The notes: generated by a model not told the origin, from the sequence alone. 54,514 nt of DNA from an uncultured Gammaproteobacteria bacterium (GCA_964474445.1 CAYYSJ010000008.1:1-54514), one strand, 5' to 3'; counted from the stretch's first letter, positions 23,035 to 45,841 are shown. Translations and numbers: made by a program.

Positions 23035-23059
23035 AAAACGTCTCTTCAGTAGGAAAATG

Positions 23060-23132
23060 TAGCAGGGGCGGGGATCGAACCCGCGACCTACAGTTTATGA
23101 TACTGCCGCTACTACCACTGAGCTACCCTGCC
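23060..23132 (-). tRNA. tRNA-Met (anticodon CAU), probable elongator
   Basis: Cloverleaf GGCAGGG-TA-GCTC..AGC-G-GCAGT-ATCATAA-ACTGT-AGGTC-GCGGG-TTCGATC-CCCGC-CCCTGCT-A. T-loop is canonical, G1-U72 is a wobble pair, and CCA is not encoded. Confidence 0.85.
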
Positions 23133-23811
23133 CCACTGAATTGAAATGTAAACCTTCTATTAATCCTAAGACTTTATAGTAAAGTTCTCCTCCTTTTGCC
23201 ACTTTTATGACAAATGTTCCATAATGGTTTTCGAAATTACTATAAACCTTTCGATTTTTTACTTTTTTGAAACTGGTCTTCGTAAATTGCTGTAAAGAAA
23301 TACCGGTTAGATTTGACCAATACGCCTTTACACTATCTTCACGAGTTCTATGCATTTCATTTATACCGACATAACATTTAAGATCTGCAGGCTTTACATG
23401 AAAGCATTTTTGTAACCAGTGTAAAAAGAATTTTATCATTTTAGGATCAGAATTACAAAGCTCTAAACGTCTTTGTTTCTTACTACCTTCAGCCCAATAT
23501 AAAGCAAGACCAGCAATAAGAAGCTCTCTTTCCGTGATGTGAGAAAACATTTTTATACCCTCCCTCTTTAGTTTTTCTTCCCTTTCTAATCTTTTTTGTT
23601 TTTGTAAGAAAGCACTTCGCAACCTTCCTAATTCTGCACCTTTAATCTCACTATGACGAAGTTTTTCCAACTGTTCGATTGTTAAAACAATATCCCTAAC
23701 CCAAAGGCTTGCTGAACTTTTTGAAACACCAAGTTGATTAGCTATTTGTTTAACACTTATTCCTTGCTTTCTTAGCTCTCTTGCTTTTAAACGCAAATCA
23801 TATTTTGCCAT
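23095..23811 (-). CDS. HTH-containing protein with a LAGLIDADG-like motif (putative free-standing homing endonuclease)
   Basis: N-terminal resolvase-type HTH (ISVKQIANQLGVSKSSASLWV). Central ELLIAGLALYWAEGSK resembles a LAGLIDADG block. The 3' 38 nt overlap tRNA-Met, and the TAA stop lies in its anticodon loop. Confidence 0.45.
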   Translation of the reverse strand: MAKYDLRLKARELRKQGISVKQIANQLGVSKSSASLWVRDIVLTIEQLEKLRHSEIKGAELGRLRSAFLQKQKRLEREEKLKREGIKMFSHITERELLIAGLALYWAEGSKKQRRLELCNSDPKMIKFFLHWLQKCFHVKPADLKCYVGINEMHRTREDSVKAYWSNLTGISLQQFTKTSFKKVKNRKVYSNFENHYGTFVIKVAKGGELYYKVLGLIEGLHFNSVGQGSSVVVAAVS

Positions 23812-23876: not shown

Positions 23877-23905
23877 TTGACCAAATGTATTGAAGCTGTT
23901 ATAAT
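23877..23905 (+). promoter_or_regulatory. promoter TTGACC-17-(TGt)TATAAT for the intron-containing tRNA
   Basis: Consensus -10 box with an extended TG. It ends 9 nt before tRNA position 1 (23915). Confidence 0.7.
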
Positions 23906-23914
23906 GATTTTATA

Positions 23915-24178
23915 CGCGGGGTAGTGTACAGTGCACATGAGGCTTGTAAAAATGGGCCGGCTTATTAGTAATAATAAGCAATGAACTCAGCTATATCGGA
24001 AAACTCCCACTTCTTTAAAGAAAGGACAATTCCGAGGGAAGGTTCGCCACTTGGCGAAAACCCGTAGAGACTATACGCTGAGCCAGCCACTGGCTGGATG
24101 ATATAGTCCGACACTCTGAGTAATCAGAGATAACTGATGCATAATCTCATAGGCTAGGCGCAACTCCTAGCCCCGCAA
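23915..24178 (+). tRNA. initiator-like tRNA(CAU) gene interrupted by a group I intron
   Basis: Exons 23915-23944 and 24140-24178 join to CGCGGGG-TA-GTGT-ACAGT-GCAC-A-TGAGG-CTCATAA-TCTCA-TAGG-CTAGG-CGCAACT-CCTAG-CCCCGCA-A. C1xA72 mismatch is present. The D- and T-loops are atypical. Confidence 0.7.
23945..24139 (+). ncRNA. group I intron (195 nt, IC3-like) in the anticodon loop
   Basis: Complete P1-P9 set: P2 and P9 are capped by GUAA; P3 CUCAGC/GCUGAG; P4 UCGGAA/UUCCGA; P6 UUCGCC/GGCGAA; P7 GACUAUA/UAUAGUC; P8 CCAGCC/GGCUGG. The 5' exon ends in U and the intron ends in G. Confidence 0.8.
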
Positions 24179-34002: not shown

Positions 34003-34025
34003 AACCTTAAGGACAACGAATATTG

Positions 34026-34099
34026 TGGGTCAGGCAGGACTCGGACCTGCGACACCCTGTGTATAAGACAAGTGCTCTAACCAACTGAGCTACTGACCC
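34026..34099 (-). tRNA. tRNA-Ile (anticodon UAU)
   Basis: GGGTCAG-TA-GCTC-AGTTGGTTA-GAGC-A-CTTGT-CTTATAC-ACAGG-GTGTC-GCAGG-TCCGAGT-CCTGC-CTGACCC-A. Clean cloverleaf. The T-loop begins UC rather than UU. Confidence 0.85.
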
Positions 34100-40617: not shown

Positions 40618-41118
40618 CTATTGTGCTGCGTTAAATCGGAAACCTTTCACAATATGTAAGACGGTCTCATATCCACCAAATAATACTGTAGTGTAAAAAA
40701 GATCTCCCACTATAGTGTTCCTAAAGAATGGTAATGCCATGACATATGCCTCTATCATTCCTGAAAACGTTTTTGGATATAACGATGTTACATACCAAAA
40801 GGTAAAATTCGTAAGAAGGAAGAACAACAACGAAGAGACTAATGATGCTCCAATAACGGTTTGAATACTTTTATGGGAATGTAACCATAGTCCTATAAAT
40901 CCAGTAATTAGAAAACTAAGATATACAAATGGTGTACTAGCACTAAATCCAAGGAAAAAGTCCGAGAGAACCATTGCTGCAAGTGGAACAATCAACGCAT
41001 ATTTTTTATTCAGATAGGTTCCTCCAAAAAGTGCCATAGCAGCAATTGGTGCAACGTTTGAAATATGAGGGAGCAAGCGTAAAAGAGCTGCTCCAATGAT
41101 TAAAAATAATGCAAACAT
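40618..41118 (-). CDS. small polytopic membrane protein, putative substrate-capture (S-component-like) B12 transporter
   Basis: About 5-6 transmembrane helices. The transporter call rests on operon context only, plus a resemblance to DUF6580-type proteins as I recall them. Confidence 0.45.
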   Translation of the reverse strand: MFALFLIIGAALLRLLPHISNVAPIAAMALFGGTYLNKKYALIVPLAAMVLSDFFLGFSASTPFVYLSFLITGFIGLWLHSHKSIQTVIGASLVSSLLFFLLTNFTFWYVTSLYPKTFSGMIEAYVMALPFFRNTIVGDLFYTTVLFGGYETVLHIVKGFRFNAAQ

Positions 41119-41121
41119 AGC

Positions 41122-42516
41122 TTACTTTTTTCTCCTTTTCAAGGTATTGGTAGCATAGAACAAAAGGAAAACTATGCCAAGAGTAGTTACTATAACAAAT
41201 GCTATCGTATTTTTTCGATACACTGTTTGTGTAACCGCTTTTTGATCTTGCGCTCCCAATACTTCTGTTGTCGGACTTGCCTCAGGTGTGAGATTTGTGT
41301 CTGTAGCCAAGACAAGAGCACCTGTAACAGGTGCAGGAGAGATAACAAGTGAAATTGGTTGCCTTGAGCTTATTGATGAGGTTATGGTTGGAGTTGCCAC
41401 CTGTATAGATGTTGGCATTGGAGTAACCGTCAGAACAACTGTTGGAGTAGGTGTACTACTTGGCGTAGGACTGACTACCGATGGAGATGGTGTCGTTGCA
41501 CTCGAAGTTTGCGAGCTTGTATTGAAGCTCTGAATAATCCATCCTTTCCCGCTTAACCCAATTAACGCGTGAGCTGTTGTTGTCGAGTTAGAAGCATACC
41601 CTGTGCATGCAAATGTCGTTGGATCCCACTGATTACAGGCAGTAAATCCTCCATCAGTTGGTGATTGTTGAGATAATAGCCATGTGCGTGCATTACCTGT
41701 TTCGTCTGAGTTTTGCATTGCCAATACATTTAAAGCCATCAAAGCCCATGTCGTAGAGTCAGAGTCTGGTGTTGTCGTCCACGGGTTTGTGTCATACAGG
41801 AATCCCCCACTTTTGTCTTGAGTACTTAATAGGTATGTTTTTGCTTTGTTTAGTCCAGTATCTAACAATCCATTAACTACACCGTAATTTTTGGCAGCAA
41901 CTAACGCTTGTATTGCTGCAGCAGTATCATTTCCATCGCTTCCTGCTGTTGTTGAGTATCCAAAACCACCATCGGCATTTTGGTGAGCAAGAATAAATGA
42001 AAGACTATCCGTTAATTCAGCATCTGAGGTGGCAACTCCACTTGAGACAAGTGCCATAACTCCAAACCAATCATCATTCTCAGTAGTAGGATCTCCAATT
42101 TGGTGGTTGTTATAATATGGAGCTGACTGAAGTGTAGTCACATAGTTGATCCCTCCAAAGCTATAGGGATTTTGTCCACTTGCTACTATCGCAAGAGTCC
42201 ATTTTTCCCATTCAGTTACAGATGAAGATGTTGTGGGATGATTGTTCTGCAAATACGTTATTACTGACGGAGCGTGTGTTGAAGTTTTTACCGTTGACAG
42301 ATCTATCCCATTTGCTGAAAAAGCAACCGCAGCCCACGGAGACGCATCGCCAGTTGAGCCTCCCGTTATCTGTCCTGTTGCCCCGTTGAGTTGGGTTCCT
42401 AAGTAATTTATCCCCTTCCCTATTGCAGCATCTGTTTTCGCATCTGCATACACATGTAAGGCACTCAGGTTGAGTATGAAGAATGTCAATAAAACGATCA
42501 GCGCTACTACTCTCAT
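41122..42516 (-). CDS. secreted prenyltransferase/squalene-oxidase-repeat protein with a C-terminal membrane anchor
   Basis: Signal peptide, repeated QxxDGGF motifs (QNADGGFGY, QDKSGGF, QSPTDGGF), Ser/Thr/Pro linker and a terminal transmembrane helix + RRKK. Start at MRVVAL (42516). Confidence 0.7.
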   Translation of the reverse strand: MRVVALIVLLTFFILNLSALHVYADAKTDAAIGKGINYLGTQLNGATGQITGGSTGDASPWAAVAFSANGIDLSTVKTSTHAPSVITYLQNNHPTTSSSVTEWEKWTLAIVASGQNPYSFGGINYVTTLQSAPYYNNHQIGDPTTENDDWFGVMALVSSGVATSDAELTDSLSFILAHQNADGGFGYSTTAGSDGNDTAAAIQALVAAKNYGVVNGLLDTGLNKAKTYLLSTQDKSGGFLYDTNPWTTTPDSDSTTWALMALNVLAMQNSDETGNARTWLLSQQSPTDGGFTACNQWDPTTFACTGYASNSTTTAHALIGLSGKGWIIQSFNTSSQTSSATTPSPSVVSPTPSSTPTPTVVLTVTPMPTSIQVATPTITSSISSRQPISLVISPAPVTGALVLATDTNLTPEASPTTEVLGAQDQKAVTQTVYRKNTIAFVIVTTLGIVFLLFYATNTLKRRKK

Positions 42517-42520
42517 ATGG

Positions 42521-43105
42521 TTATCCAAACTTCCAAACAATACTGTCTCCTGAGTTGGGTGTATACAAAGAACAGCCTTGAGGAGACTTTCCGTTGACTG
42601 TTACTGTCCAATTGTTTTGATACCCATTTACTTCTTTTATATAAGCACTATGGAGAGATGACATATAAGAATAATCAATAGTTACGGACCGTACTTTCCC
42701 CTCATTCTTCGCCTCAGTAAGATTGTCACAAAGATTATTCCCCGAATTAAGAGTAACTGTAAAAGTATTTGTTCCATCTGGCTCAATAATCTGCATCGTG
42801 ACAGTAGGTTTAGGTGCCTGGCTTGGTTGAGAAGTTGGTGGTGTTGATTGAGATACAGAAACTGGGGTCATTGAGATTGGTATCACTGGAACCGTTGGAG
42901 GTGTTGTAACAGCAACATGTTGTATCTTTTTTACTATCTCCGTAGGGGTCGGTGGTGGTGTTAGTTTCTTTGTTAAGCCTGCTACAGTAGTTGTTTGCTT
43001 TATCCCCAAAAAATGTTGGGGCGAGATAACAATGCCAACTGCGAGTAAAAAACACAGTATTGCTCCAAAGAGCGAAAAGAATATTTGTAACTTTTTTGTG
43101 TTCAT
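42521..43105 (-). CDS. DUF4430-domain (transcobalamin-like) surface protein
   Basis: Signal/anchor, Pro/Thr linker and the C-terminal pattern IKEVNGYQNNWTVTVNGKSPQGCSLYTPNSGDSIVWKF, typical of DUF4430. Confidence 0.7.
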   Translation of the reverse strand: MNTKKLQIFFSLFGAILCFLLAVGIVISPQHFLGIKQTTTVAGLTKKLTPPPTPTEIVKKIQHVAVTTPPTVPVIPISMTPVSVSQSTPPTSQPSQAPKPTVTMQIIEPDGTNTFTVTLNSGNNLCDNLTEAKNEGKVRSVTIDYSYMSSLHSAYIKEVNGYQNNWTVTVNGKSPQGCSLYTPNSGDSIVWKFG

Positions 43106-43195: not shown

Positions 43196-43300
43196 TACAA
43201 AAAAATCCTGCTCGGGAAGATTTGCTTGTTTAGTTTTCTGGGTTTACAGTTGCGGCACACCCACGGACTTTCACCGTGATTGCCTAAACAGGCATACTGA
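43196..43300 (-). promoter_or_regulatory. cobalamin riboswitch aptamer
   Basis: The minus strand has AGGCAAUCACGGUGAAAGUCCGUGGGUGUGCCGCAACUGUAAACCC...CUUCCCGAGCAGG. This matches the remembered core (GGGAA, GGUGxAAxUCC hairpin, GCxGCxACUGU, B12 box CCCGAxGxxx with P1 pairing CCUG/CAGG). Confidence 0.65.
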
Positions 43301-43345: not shown

Positions 43346-45841
43346 TTAGCATTCGCTGTGTCCACAGCTATAGCATTTCTTACAACCGTCTTCGTACGCA
43401 AATGCACTCACTCCACACTCTGGGCAAATATCGTACAAATTTGTTTTTGCACTTTCCTGAGCAAATAACGACTCTTGTCCAACAACAGGAGCTTGTGTTT
43501 CTTCTTCATGAACAACATGTGTTTCTGCTGTTGATTCTACAGATGGAACAACGCCATCTGTTAAAACTTGCTTAATAACATTTCTATCTTCCACTTTCCC
43601 ATTGACTGCGAATGAGAAATGCTGTGCCAATATTTTCGCGATAGCATCTGGAAGAGATCGCACTTTGTTTATACCAAAGCCGACGCTTCGTGATCCACCA
43701 ATACCGGTCAGTTGTGCAACAACTTGTCGTATTCTCTCTCGTGGAGCAAGTGCACCATTGAGACGAAGATTAAGAGAAATCATTCTACCTAATGCGTCTG
43801 CCATTGCAGCAACATCAGAGCCTGATTTACCAATGGTAATAAATACTTCAAATGGCTGGTTGTTTTCGGTGTGATTGATAGTAATAAAGGTTTCGCCAAC
43901 AGGTGTTTCTGTTTTGTATGTTGATCCATCAATTCTTTGTGGTCTTGCAACAACTGGCATAATTGCAGGAAGTGGTGCTTGCACTGGTTGCTCAACAGGC
44001 TTTGCTTCCTCTTTTTTCTTTTCATCAACTCGCTCCAAAACTCCTTGTCTACTCCCATCTCTCATATATGTCACTCCTTTCAGACCGTAATCATATGCTG
44101 CCATATAGAGTGTCTTCACATCTTCAACAGTGTGTGCATTTGGTGCATTCACGGTTTTTGAAATAGAAGAATCAATATACTCCTGAGCAACTGCTTGTAC
44201 TTTTACATGCTCAAGTGGAGTAAGGTCATTTGCTGAGACAAAATAAGCTGGTTTCTCTTGCCCTTCATGTGATTTTCTCCAGAGATCGTAAAGGGGATGG
44301 TACACCATGTCTTCCCCTCCTCTCCAGCGTCTCAAGAATGAGAATTCATATACTGGTTCCACTCCTGAGGATACTCCTGATACAAGAGATGTTGTTCCTG
44401 TAGGTGCAATTGTGAGCAAAACTGCGTTGCGAATACCATTCTTTGCAATTTTTTGTTGAATTGCCCTAGGAAGATTTTGGATATGATACCCTTTTAAGTA
44501 TTTTGCTTTTTGGAATTGAGGAAATGCTCCCTTTTCGTTTGCAATCTCTGCTGATGCCTCATATGCTTCGTTTCGAAGTGTTTCAAAAATTTTATGGATG
44601 ACAGGGAGTGACTCTTCAGACCCATATGGTAGATGCATTTTAATGAGTGCATCTCCTAAGCCCATGATGCCAAGGCCCGTACGTCGAATTTGTTTTGCTA
44701 TTTCTTCATTCTCTTTAAAGAAGTAGTATGTTTTATCAATCACGTTGTCTAAGAAACGCATGGCAACCCGGACATCTTTCCCAAAGGCTTCATAATCAAA
44801 CCAGCCGGGCTTATCATTCGCCAAATCTGCATCTCTCACATAGACTGACAGATTCATTGCTCCCAAGTTACAGACTGCCCATGGACCAAGAGGCTGCTCG
44901 CCGCATGGGTTAGTAGCGACAAGTCTTTCAAAATACCAGGTATTGCTTCTTTTGTTGGATCTTTCCATAAAGTGAAGTCCTGGTTCAGCAGATCTCCATG
45001 CTGCAGTGCAAATAAGATTCCACAATTCTCGTGCCTTAACTGTTTTGTATACTTTTACTTTCTTTCCTAATGCTCTCCATTGATCAATCTCCCCATTCCA
45101 CTTTTCATCATACTCAGGGTCGTCAATATCAGGATATACCAAATCCCAATCTGCATCTTTTTTCACCGCTTCCATGAATGCATCAGAAATACAAACAGAA
45201 AGGTTTGCTCCGTTAATTTTTGAAAGGTCTTCTTTAACAGTAATAAATTCCTCAACATCTGGATGCCAATCCCACAACATGAGCATCGTAGCACCTCTTC
45301 GTGTACCTCCCTGTTGCACAACGTCATGGGTTGCATAGGAGAAAAGTCCAGCCCAGGTAACAGGACCTGAGGAGGTTCCATTTACTTTCTTCACTCGTGC
45401 GCCCCGAGGCCGAAGAGAGGACAAGTTAAGGCCTACGCCCCCGCTTCGGGACTGTATTTCAACGAGCTGCTTAAGTGATTCTAAGATTCCATCTCGGGAA
45501 TCTTTTGGACTTGGAATAACAAAACAATTAAAGTAGGTTACTTGATAGTCAGTCCCTGCTCCAGAGAGAATTCTTCCTCCTGGAACAAATTTGAAGTCAT
45601 TCATGAGGTCATAAAATTTATTTTCCCAAAGCTTTCTATTTTTCGGTAGTTCGTTTTGGGCAATACCCCACGCAACTCTTCTCCACGTTTCTTCAGGGGT
45701 TGTTTCAGTGAGGTTTCCCTCTTTATCTTTGAGAGCGTATCTATCTAAGAAGACTTTCTCTCGTAAAGTTCCAACGAAATCTTTTTGTAATGTTTGTTTT
45801 TTTGTATCACTCATAAATATTGGCTGAATTTGTTCCAGCAC
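43346..45841 (-). CDS. nrdJ: adenosylcobalamin-dependent ribonucleotide reductase (class II)
   Basis: Typical class II N-terminus (FLDRYALKD), catalytic NPCGEQPL, TIAPTGT, and a C-terminal Cys-rich tail (CPECG...CKKCYSCG). Start is GTG at 45841 or ATG at 45814. Confidence 0.9.
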   Translation of the reverse strand: MLEQIQPIFMSDTKKQTLQKDFVGTLREKVFLDRYALKDKEGNLTETTPEETWRRVAWGIAQNELPKNRKLWENKFYDLMNDFKFVPGGRILSGAGTDYQVTYFNCFVIPSPKDSRDGILESLKQLVEIQSRSGGVGLNLSSLRPRGARVKKVNGTSSGPVTWAGLFSYATHDVVQQGGTRRGATMLMLWDWHPDVEEFITVKEDLSKINGANLSVCISDAFMEAVKKDADWDLVYPDIDDPEYDEKWNGEIDQWRALGKKVKVYKTVKARELWNLICTAAWRSAEPGLHFMERSNKRSNTWYFERLVATNPCGEQPLGPWAVCNLGAMNLSVYVRDADLANDKPGWFDYEAFGKDVRVAMRFLDNVIDKTYYFFKENEEIAKQIRRTGLGIMGLGDALIKMHLPYGSEESLPVIHKIFETLRNEAYEASAEIANEKGAFPQFQKAKYLKGYHIQNLPRAIQQKIAKNGIRNAVLLTIAPTGTTSLVSGVSSGVEPVYEFSFLRRWRGGEDMVYHPLYDLWRKSHEGQEKPAYFVSANDLTPLEHVKVQAVAQEYIDSSISKTVNAPNAHTVEDVKTLYMAAYDYGLKGVTYMRDGSRQGVLERVDEKKKEEAKPVEQPVQAPLPAIMPVVARPQRIDGSTYKTETPVGETFITINHTENNQPFEVFITIGKSGSDVAAMADALGRMISLNLRLNGALAPRERIRQVVAQLTGIGGSRSVGFGINKVRSLPDAIAKILAQHFSFAVNGKVEDRNVIKQVLTDGVVPSVESTAETHVVHEEETQAPVVGQESLFAQESAKTNLYDICPECGVSAFAYEDGCKKCYSCGHSEC

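Follow-up and report, generated by a model that had tools for sequence, protein, structure and literature searches.

What interrupts the gene for a CAU-anticodon tRNA, and how the insertion may have come to lie there, are the questions raised by a 54,514-nucleotide (nt) stretch of DNA, hereafter the window, deposited as part of an uncultured Gammaproteobacteria bacterium (GCA_964474445.1 CAYYSJ010000008.1:1-54514). Our analysis indicates that the insertion (positions 23945–24139, plus strand) is very probably a genuine group I intron, without an open reading frame (ORF) and with an IC3-like architecture, placed between U33 and C34 of an initiator-type tRNA(CAU) gene in a Microgenomates/Levybacteria-like, small-genome host of the candidate phyla radiation (CPR). 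The sequence of the split gene (23915–24178, plus strand) reads as quoted in the initial annotation of this locus. Its 5′ exon (23915–23944) contains the acceptor 5′ strand CGCGGGG, a D stem of 3 base pairs (bp) with the loop UACAGUG, and the anticodon-stem 5′ strand UGAGG followed by C32 and U33. After the intron, 195 nt long and ending with a G at 24139, the 3′ exon (24140–24178) resumes with C34, A35, U36, A37 and A38 and continues with the anticodon-stem 3′ strand UCUCA, the variable loop UAGG, the T stem CUAGG/CCUAG with the loop CGCAACU, the acceptor 3′ strand CCCCGCA and the discriminator A; CCA is not encoded. Joining the exons restores the 7-nt anticodon loop CUCAUAA with the anticodon CAU, and ARAGORN, proposed in the initial annotation as a check of the spliced sequence, identifies 23915–23944 plus 24140–24178 as tRNA-Met(cat). 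The second check suggested there, a search with the Rfam model Intron_gpI (RF00028), matched 23935–24130 on the plus strand in a local scan with laxer filters (50.6 bits, E = 5e-12, model positions 1–253). When folded, the intron reaches −63.3 kcal/mol, which corresponds to z = −5.5 relative to dinucleotide shuffles, and this minimum-energy fold recovers P2, P3, P4, P5, P6, P8 and P9, as well as P1 once the exon tail is included.

The helices listed in the initial annotation were all present at their positions, although the list itself needed amendment. The exon and the intron form P1 (23941–23947/23952–23958) with the splice-site U·G pair at 23944·23955, followed by P2 (23960–23967/23972–23979), capped by a GUAA loop, P3 (23986–23991/24077–24082), P4 (23996–24001/24030–24035) and P5 (24005–24007/24024–24026, plus a short extension), the latter having been omitted. 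The helix that had been labelled P6 (24043–24048/24053–24058) is better called P6a, the proper P6 being the GGG/CCC pairing 24036–24038/24061–24063. P7 (24069–24075/24102–24108), P8 (24083–24088/24092–24097) and P9 (24114–24119/24124–24129, also with a GUAA loop) complete the set, together with a potential P10 between the first three bases of the 3′ exon, CAU, and AUG at 23952–23954; all these pairings lie on the plus strand.

Covariation was evaluated in an alignment of 55 sequences, composed of the full-length homologues from a genome scan described below and 43 complete intron-bearing metagenome copies, and also in a smaller alignment of 13 sequences; 54 distinct homologous sequences back the structure of the intron in this way. 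In the larger alignment, 92.5% of the structure cells were paired, against 83.6% in shuffles (none of 500 reached the observed value) and 33–46% in slid registers. P3 was paired in 100% and P9 in 99.7% of the cases, each with four of its six pairs altered on both sides, P8 showed covariation at all pairs, and P1, P4 and P5 were ~99% paired; taken together, P3, P4, P5, P6, P8 and P9 were 84–100% paired, each with two-sided changes. The U·G pair at the splice site was found in 54 of 54 sequences, the terminal G of the intron (alignment position G225, window position 24139) was invariant, and so was the catalytic core across sequences coming from several candidate phyla. The P10 pairing of CAU with AUG was present in 94.9% and the anticodon stem was paired in 100%, and the GNRA tetraloops L2 and L9 were both conserved in the homologues. 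Together with the Rfam, ARAGORN and folding results, this exceeds by far what would be expected by chance.

To obtain a sample blind to the intron, we scanned metagenomes with the 5′ exon alone as query, which retrieved 63 genes without and 49 with the intron, besides 8 unrelated matches. One intronless contig (L203) was 100% identical to the ligated exons predicted for the window over all 69 nt, and ten exon haplotypes occurred both with and without the intron. The splice junction is therefore fixed between GGCU and CAUAA, and even very close relatives are polymorphic for the presence or absence of the intron. The boundaries originally proposed, between U33 and C34 and after the terminal G at 24139, are thus borne out by natural intronless alleles and by homologues. 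The intron is probably mobile now or was so recently. Its length varies between 180 and 231 nt in the family of the window, so that the 195 nt that the initial annotation had considered remarkably small are average. At some loci (L236, L201, L146 and L176) the introns measure only 180–183 nt and P6a has almost disappeared, making them candidates for very small natural group I ribozymes.

Upstream of the split gene, a promoter-like site of the sigma-70 type, pointed out as a promoter in the initial annotation, is present at 23877–23905 (plus strand), with TTGACC, a 17-nt spacer and TATAAT preceded by a TG extension. This site, the best of the region, agrees with the consensus at 11 of 12 positions, and 9 nt separate it from tRNA position 1; −10-like boxes also precede most of the homologous tRNA genes. 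The split gene may be expressed from it, and its transcript would be expected to undergo self-splicing by the group I pathway. Transcription would begin at the promoter-like site and the intron would fold so that the exon sequence GGCU pairs with the intron sequence GGCC in P1, setting U33 in the U·G wobble. An exogenous guanosine held in P7 would attack the 5′ splice site, P10 would dock the 3′ exon, and the released 3′-OH of U33 would attack after the terminal G at 24139. This would yield a tRNA of 69 nt, counting the discriminator, whose anticodon loop is CUCAUAA; since the gene encodes no CCA, this end would be added later.

The split gene probably encodes an initiator tRNA. This assignment is based on the CAU anticodon, the C1×A72 mismatch, which the window shares with 51 of 54 homologues (the other three have U1-A72), the existence in the window of a separate elongator-type tRNA-Met(CAU) gene (23059–23132, minus strand, 780 nt from the split gene) and of a tRNA-Ile(UAU) gene (34025–34099, minus strand), and the canonical-looking initiators with a 1×72 mismatch that occupy the equivalent position in other CPR lineages. 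With these two tRNA genes in the window, a CAU-bearing tRNA-Ile2 is probably not needed; the tRNA-Ile(UAU) also suggests that AUA is read in this host without a lysidine-modified tRNA-Ile2(CAU). The tRNA has a peculiar body, with its short D stem, a D loop lacking GG and an unusual T loop, but it is under constraint, as judged from the compensatory changes that its T, acceptor and anticodon stems exhibit among homologues. Moreover, position 18 of the D loop and position 55 of the T loop covary without exception in 61 exon haplotypes (L126–L245), 29 of them having G18/U55 and 32 A18/G55, the latter being the form found in the window (D loop 23927–23933, T loop 24159–24165). The elbow contact thus seems to have been remodelled, yet conserved, in these initiator tRNAs of CPR bacteria.

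Several observations weigh against this interpretation of the intron and its host gene. The RF00028 score surpasses the gathering score of 50 by a narrow margin, and the intron was missed when the whole window was scanned with Rfam at gathering thresholds and default filters, a scan whose only matches were two tRNAs and an AdoCbl-II riboswitch. P7 is invariant, with five pairs always present, and of the seven pairs proposed for it one fails to form in 31 of 54 sequences; this helix is therefore neither supported nor contradicted by covariation. The initial annotation had named P3, P7 and P8 as the helices whose pairing ought to be backed by homologues, and this holds for P3 and P8 but not for P7. 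Concerning the tRNA, the anticodon stem (23938–23942/24145–24149) has A29-U41, G30-C40 and G31·U39, constant in all homologues, intron-bearing or intronless, instead of the three canonical G-C pairs of initiators (29-41, 30-40 and 31-39), and U11-A24 replaces A11-U24 in all of them. The qualification of the tRNA as initiator-like in the initial annotation consequently stands for the CAU anticodon and the C1×A72 mismatch, but not for the anticodon-stem G-C pairs, the A11-U24 pair and the canonical D and T loops. Because two classical hallmarks are lacking, the initiator assignment falls short of proof.

The affiliation of the host deserves attention as well. The window, with 39% G+C, encodes MurD, MurI, Tgt, RadC and NrdJ, and its nearest syntenic loci belong to metagenome-assembled genomes (MAGs) of Candidatus Levybacteria and other Microgenomates (50–59% identity for MurI and 53–58% for MurD); it is therefore a piece of CPR/Patescibacteria chromosome. 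The Microgenomates-type tRNA, intron and ORF are also carried by several third-party annotation MAGs (loci L004, L033, L038, L046 and L083) entitled "uncultured Gammaproteobacteria", one of which is a 615-kb chromosome (OZ246397.1), and the Gammaproteobacteria labels of these MAGs look doubtful. A phage origin was considered and rejected: a BLAST search against phage records matched the neighbouring tRNA-Met only, and the tRNA pattern retrieved just unrelated phage tRNAs from viral contigs. Elsewhere in the window, an AdoCbl-II (B12) riboswitch was detected at 43223–43294 on the minus strand (40.4 bits, cut-off 36.5). It lies just downstream of the gene nrdJ for the B12-dependent ribonucleotide reductase (43346–45841) and upstream of genes for a DUF4430 protein, a prenyltransferase-like toroid protein and a DUF6580 protein (40618–43105), which probably form a cobalamin-uptake operon.

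How widespread are such introns? When one genome per species was searched for the core string GTAGAGACTA...GATATAGTC, at least 120 loci (L003–L122) from as many species were retrieved, of which at least 12 are full-length homologues of the exon-intron-exon unit of the window. Among the core-string matches listed, most belong to CPR bacteria, accompanied by Gammaproteobacteria, Acidobacteriota, Bacillaceae and Bacteroidota; none of those listed is cyanobacterial. The introns sharing this core interrupt tRNAs that ARAGORN calls Arg, Asp, Thr, Tyr, Ser, His, Leu and Met, with approximate isotypes and boundaries, and among the matches listed the lengths that it gives, likewise approximate, go down to ~167 nt. 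The literature points in the same direction. Among 80,413 bacterial genomes, one survey counted 5,292 split tRNA genes, metagenomic assemblies of unnamed phyla having 0.49 of them per genome (bioRxiv 10.1101/2020.01.27.920355), and a study in which 34 CPR genomes were closed remarked that some tRNAs, hard to detect, contained group I introns (PMC8172020). One of the four classical classes of bacterial tRNA group I introns, all of them IC3, is fMet.2Ug, a name given to introns of tRNA-fMet genes that follow the second nucleotide of the anticodon loop and have U(−1) and G(omega) (bioRxiv 10.1101/2020.01.27.920355). The intron of the window, inserted between CU and CAUAA and with U(−1) and G(omega), fits this definition. 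Given this site and U/G pair, and the wide spread shown by the survey, the intron itself is of an already known kind, and the rarity attributed to it in the initial annotation is not sustained. We assign the IC3-like label by likeness of architecture, namely the GNRA loops on P2 and P9 and the lack of P5abc.

If the novelty of the intron is modest, the endonuclease-like gene linked to it is the more unusual part of the locus. This free-standing ORF of 238 amino acids (23095–23811, minus strand) is divergent from the split tRNA gene, with its start 104 nt away, and its 3′ end shares 38 nt with the beginning of the elongator tRNA-Met(CAU) gene on the same strand (window positions 23095–23132). 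In nearly all relatives, among them distant CPR lineages (L008, L019, L069, L085 and L267–L272), the ORF likewise overlaps or abuts a tRNA-Met gene. The protein has an N-terminal helix-turn-helix (HTH) and a C-terminal single domain of the LAGLIDADG type (motif LIAGLALYWAEGSK, with an invariant E108). Searches of Pfam, NCBIfam, PHROGs and PDB with the full-length protein or its profile recognised the HTH and nothing else, and none of the Pfam LAGLIDADG models matched it. When the profile of the C-terminal domain was compared with PDB, I-DmoI was the sole significant match (E 5.6e-5 to 1e-4) through its second LAGLIDADG motif, LYWAEGSK of the ORF being aligned with LYVAEGDK of I-DmoI; the chain of the I-DmoI E117A mutant scored lower. 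The Glu aligned with the catalytic E117 of I-DmoI is invariant in the ORF family, and the sequence conforms to the LAGLIDADG motif. An assignment to PD-(D/E)XK or HNH nucleases, considered from the conserved residues, found nothing in its support, and relatives that seemed to have two domains proved to be tandem HTH-plus-domain repeats without further annotation. The family is large and unannotated: one search gave 586 matches, and the C-terminal domain by itself makes up 2,272 clusters at 50% identity. A search for viral relatives of the 238-residue protein found none. We consider this protein a candidate homing endonuclease, made of an HTH and a single LAGLIDADG domain predicted to keep its catalytic Glu.

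The ORF and the intron tend to occur together. In relatives without the ORF, the gap between the initiator and the elongator tRNA-Met genes is 56–100 nt, whereas a block of ~720 nt separates them in those carrying it; intermediate spacings hold frameshifted or fragmentary copies, and decayed copies were found in several contigs. Among the contigs of the intron-blind sample that extend 800 nt or more upstream, the ORF adjoins 19 of 40 genes with the intron and 1 of the 50 without it (odds ratio 44, p = 1.3e-7). Within the exon haplotypes known in both states, it lies beside 9 of 20 intron-bearing but 0 of 18 intronless genes (p = 0.0013), and ORF-bearing copies are spread over 13 exon haplotypes. 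Besides the window, loci with the ORF include L123, L135, L146, L210 and L242. This co-occurrence suggests endonuclease-assisted homing of the intron. Tentatively, and with more doubt than confidence, we propose that the intron and the HTH-LAGLIDADG gene 130 nt away constitute a two-part mobile unit, whose protein would cut naive alleles so that repair copies both elements. In such a scheme, the protein would make a double-strand break in alleles devoid of intron and ORF, either in the pseudo-palindromic DNA of the anticodon stem or at the tRNA-Met boundary, and gene conversion would then carry the ORF and the intron, 130 nt apart, together. This would be collaborative or trans homing, as described for F-CphI and the psbA intron of cyanophage S-PM2 (PMC6083498) and for T4 mobE and the nrdB I-TevIII intron (PMC2790892; reviewed in PMC3984707).

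Other results speak against homing. The sampled contigs behind the linkage statistics are phylogenetically non-independent, and 21 of the 40 intron-bearing alleles have no adjacent ORF or only decayed remnants of it. An AlphaFold2 model of the protein was of good quality (pLDDT 87, pTM 0.79), yet in a comparison aimed at the alpha-beta-beta-alpha-beta-beta-alpha fold of LAGLIDADG proteins Foldseek retrieved I-DmoI only weakly (TM 0.35–0.40, root-mean-square deviation 3.3–4 Å, probability 0.9–0.97, E > 0.1), and unrelated alpha/beta folds scored like it. Finally, five diverse relatives of the ORF chosen from the protein side were all located between an initiator tRNA and an elongator tRNA-Met gene, but in four of the five, from other CPR lineages, the initiator tRNA is intronless. 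This led us to reject the idea of a family specific to intron-bearing tRNAs in general; the ORF family is tied to the initiator/elongator tRNA-Met pair and not to introns as such, and its linkage with the intron holds within the Microgenomates-type tRNA family alone. At locus L267 (1–400), a distant relative of the ORF lies downstream of a tRNA-like gene with a larger group I intron (82 bits with Rfam), whose insertion point appears to be different, within or next to the anticodon loop.

The association of ORF and intron could have another cause, namely that the intron needs a protein cofactor and that the HTH-LAGLIDADG protein is a maturase acting in trans, their co-occurrence reflecting a splicing dependency. 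LAGLIDADG proteins can act as maturases (PMC11270868), the ORF co-occurs with the intron, and the intron is very small, with few peripheral elements to stabilise it. Nevertheless, we consider this explanation unlikely. With 21 of 40 intron-bearing alleles devoid of an intact adjacent ORF, splicing cannot depend on it in general; the HTH is of the DNA type and the acidic residue aligned with I-DmoI E117 has been kept; the same ORF family stands beside intronless tRNA genes in other CPR lineages; and the conserved GNRA tetraloops L2 and L9 are typical of self-sufficient IC3 introns.

Doubts about the tRNA itself lead to two further alternatives. The split gene might encode an elongator tRNA-Met or a lysidine-bearing tRNA-Ile2, with the true initiator elsewhere in the genome, and the departures from the canonical initiator (the anticodon stem, position 11-24 and the D and T loops), together with the U1-A72 pair of three homologues, would be in line with this. 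However, such an identity, slightly less probable in our view than a maturase role of the ORF, is hard to reconcile with the C1×A72 mismatch of the large majority of homologues, with the elongator-type tRNA-Met(CAU) only 780 nt off and the tRNA-Ile(UAU) in the same window, and with the canonical-looking initiator with a 1×72 mismatch that other CPR lineages have at the equivalent position, upstream of the ORF and the elongator tRNA-Met. The locus could also be a decaying pseudogene, that is, an initiator-like tRNA broken by an intron that no longer splices, a possibility that the non-canonical loops, the borderline Rfam score and the failure of ARAGORN to find any tRNA in the unspliced region, even in its intron mode, might evoke. 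We regard it as highly improbable: every stem of the unusual tRNA, as well as its elbow, has been maintained through compensatory changes, the identical exons are also found as an intronless gene, the catalytic core, the U·G pair and the terminal G are invariant in 55 sequences from several candidate phyla, and the strong promoter-like site has been retained.

These findings have practical consequences. As ARAGORN, whose intron mode also places introns imprecisely at other loci, misses the gene and a whole-window Rfam scan misses the intron, no initiator tRNA will seem to be present in genomes of this lineage, an apparent loss that distorts completeness estimates and tRNA inventories of CPR bacteria. 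In the intron-bearing strains, making the probable initiator tRNA would depend on a ribozyme step. The family supplies many natural introns of 180–231 nt with rich covariation, some of them below the length of the Azoarcus intron. Furthermore, an ORF-less intron linked to a LAGLIDADG-like gene, with all the intermediate states in public metagenomes, makes collaborative homing testable in cellular genomes. If the proposal is true, this would be a case of collaborative or trans homing in a cellular tRNA gene, the proposed intermediate towards endonuclease-carrying introns, and would reveal a LAGLIDADG family, large and unannotated (>2000 clusters at 50% identity), that targets the initiator/elongator tRNA-Met pair.

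Among known systems, the phage pairs F-CphI and mobE resemble the locus of the window in combining an intron that lacks a working endonuclease gene with a nearby free-standing endonuclease-like gene (~130 nt away here), a co-occurrence above expectation and, as in the life cycle of homing endonucleases, decayed ORF copies. In contrast with them, the putative unit described here resides in a tRNA gene of a cellular chromosome and its protein is HTH-LAGLIDADG rather than HNH or Endo VII; its ORF family also occurs intron-free in other CPR lineages. LAGLIDADG homing endonucleases have been found inside rRNA introns of CPR bacteria, I-ShaI being the example (PMC11270868). They share with our candidate the single-domain LAGLIDADG type, the CPR genomes and the association with group I introns in structural RNA genes. 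However, proteins of the I-ShaI type are intron-encoded, match Pfam LAGLIDADG_1/2/3 and target rRNA genes, whereas the ORF of the window is free-standing between two tRNA genes, begins with an HTH and is recognised by none of the Pfam LAGLIDADG models.

For the intron, the closest comparison is the cyanobacterial tRNA-fMet group I intron, reportedly described by Biniszkiewicz and colleagues in 1994 and Paquin and colleagues in 1997. As a member of fMet.2Ug, it has in common with the intron of the window a CAU/C1×A72 host tRNA, the insertion between CU and CAUAA, U(−1) and G(omega), a compact architecture with GNRA loops on P2 and P9, and a sporadic presence/absence. The host here is instead a Microgenomates-like CPR bacterium, and the exon tRNA is highly atypical, without the GGG/CCC anticodon stem and with altered D and T loops. 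The Azoarcus sp. BH72 tRNA-Ile(CAU) intron, an IC3 intron ~205 nt long and inserted after position 36, is the usual small model system. The J6/7-P7 string of the window, GUAGAGACUA, is presumably common to both, as put forward in the initial annotation. The Synechocystis intron encodes its own endonuclease, the PD-(D/E)XK enzyme I-Ssp6803I (Bonocora and Shub 2001, cited in PMC3984707), whereas the intron of the window has no ORF; PMC3984707 also cites structures of the Azoarcus intron. Like the latter, the intron of the window is small and ORF-less, interrupts the anticodon loop of a bacterial tRNA and displays the helix set P1–P10 without P5abc. It differs from it in its insertion site and in being 10 nt shorter, with relatives down to 180 nt.

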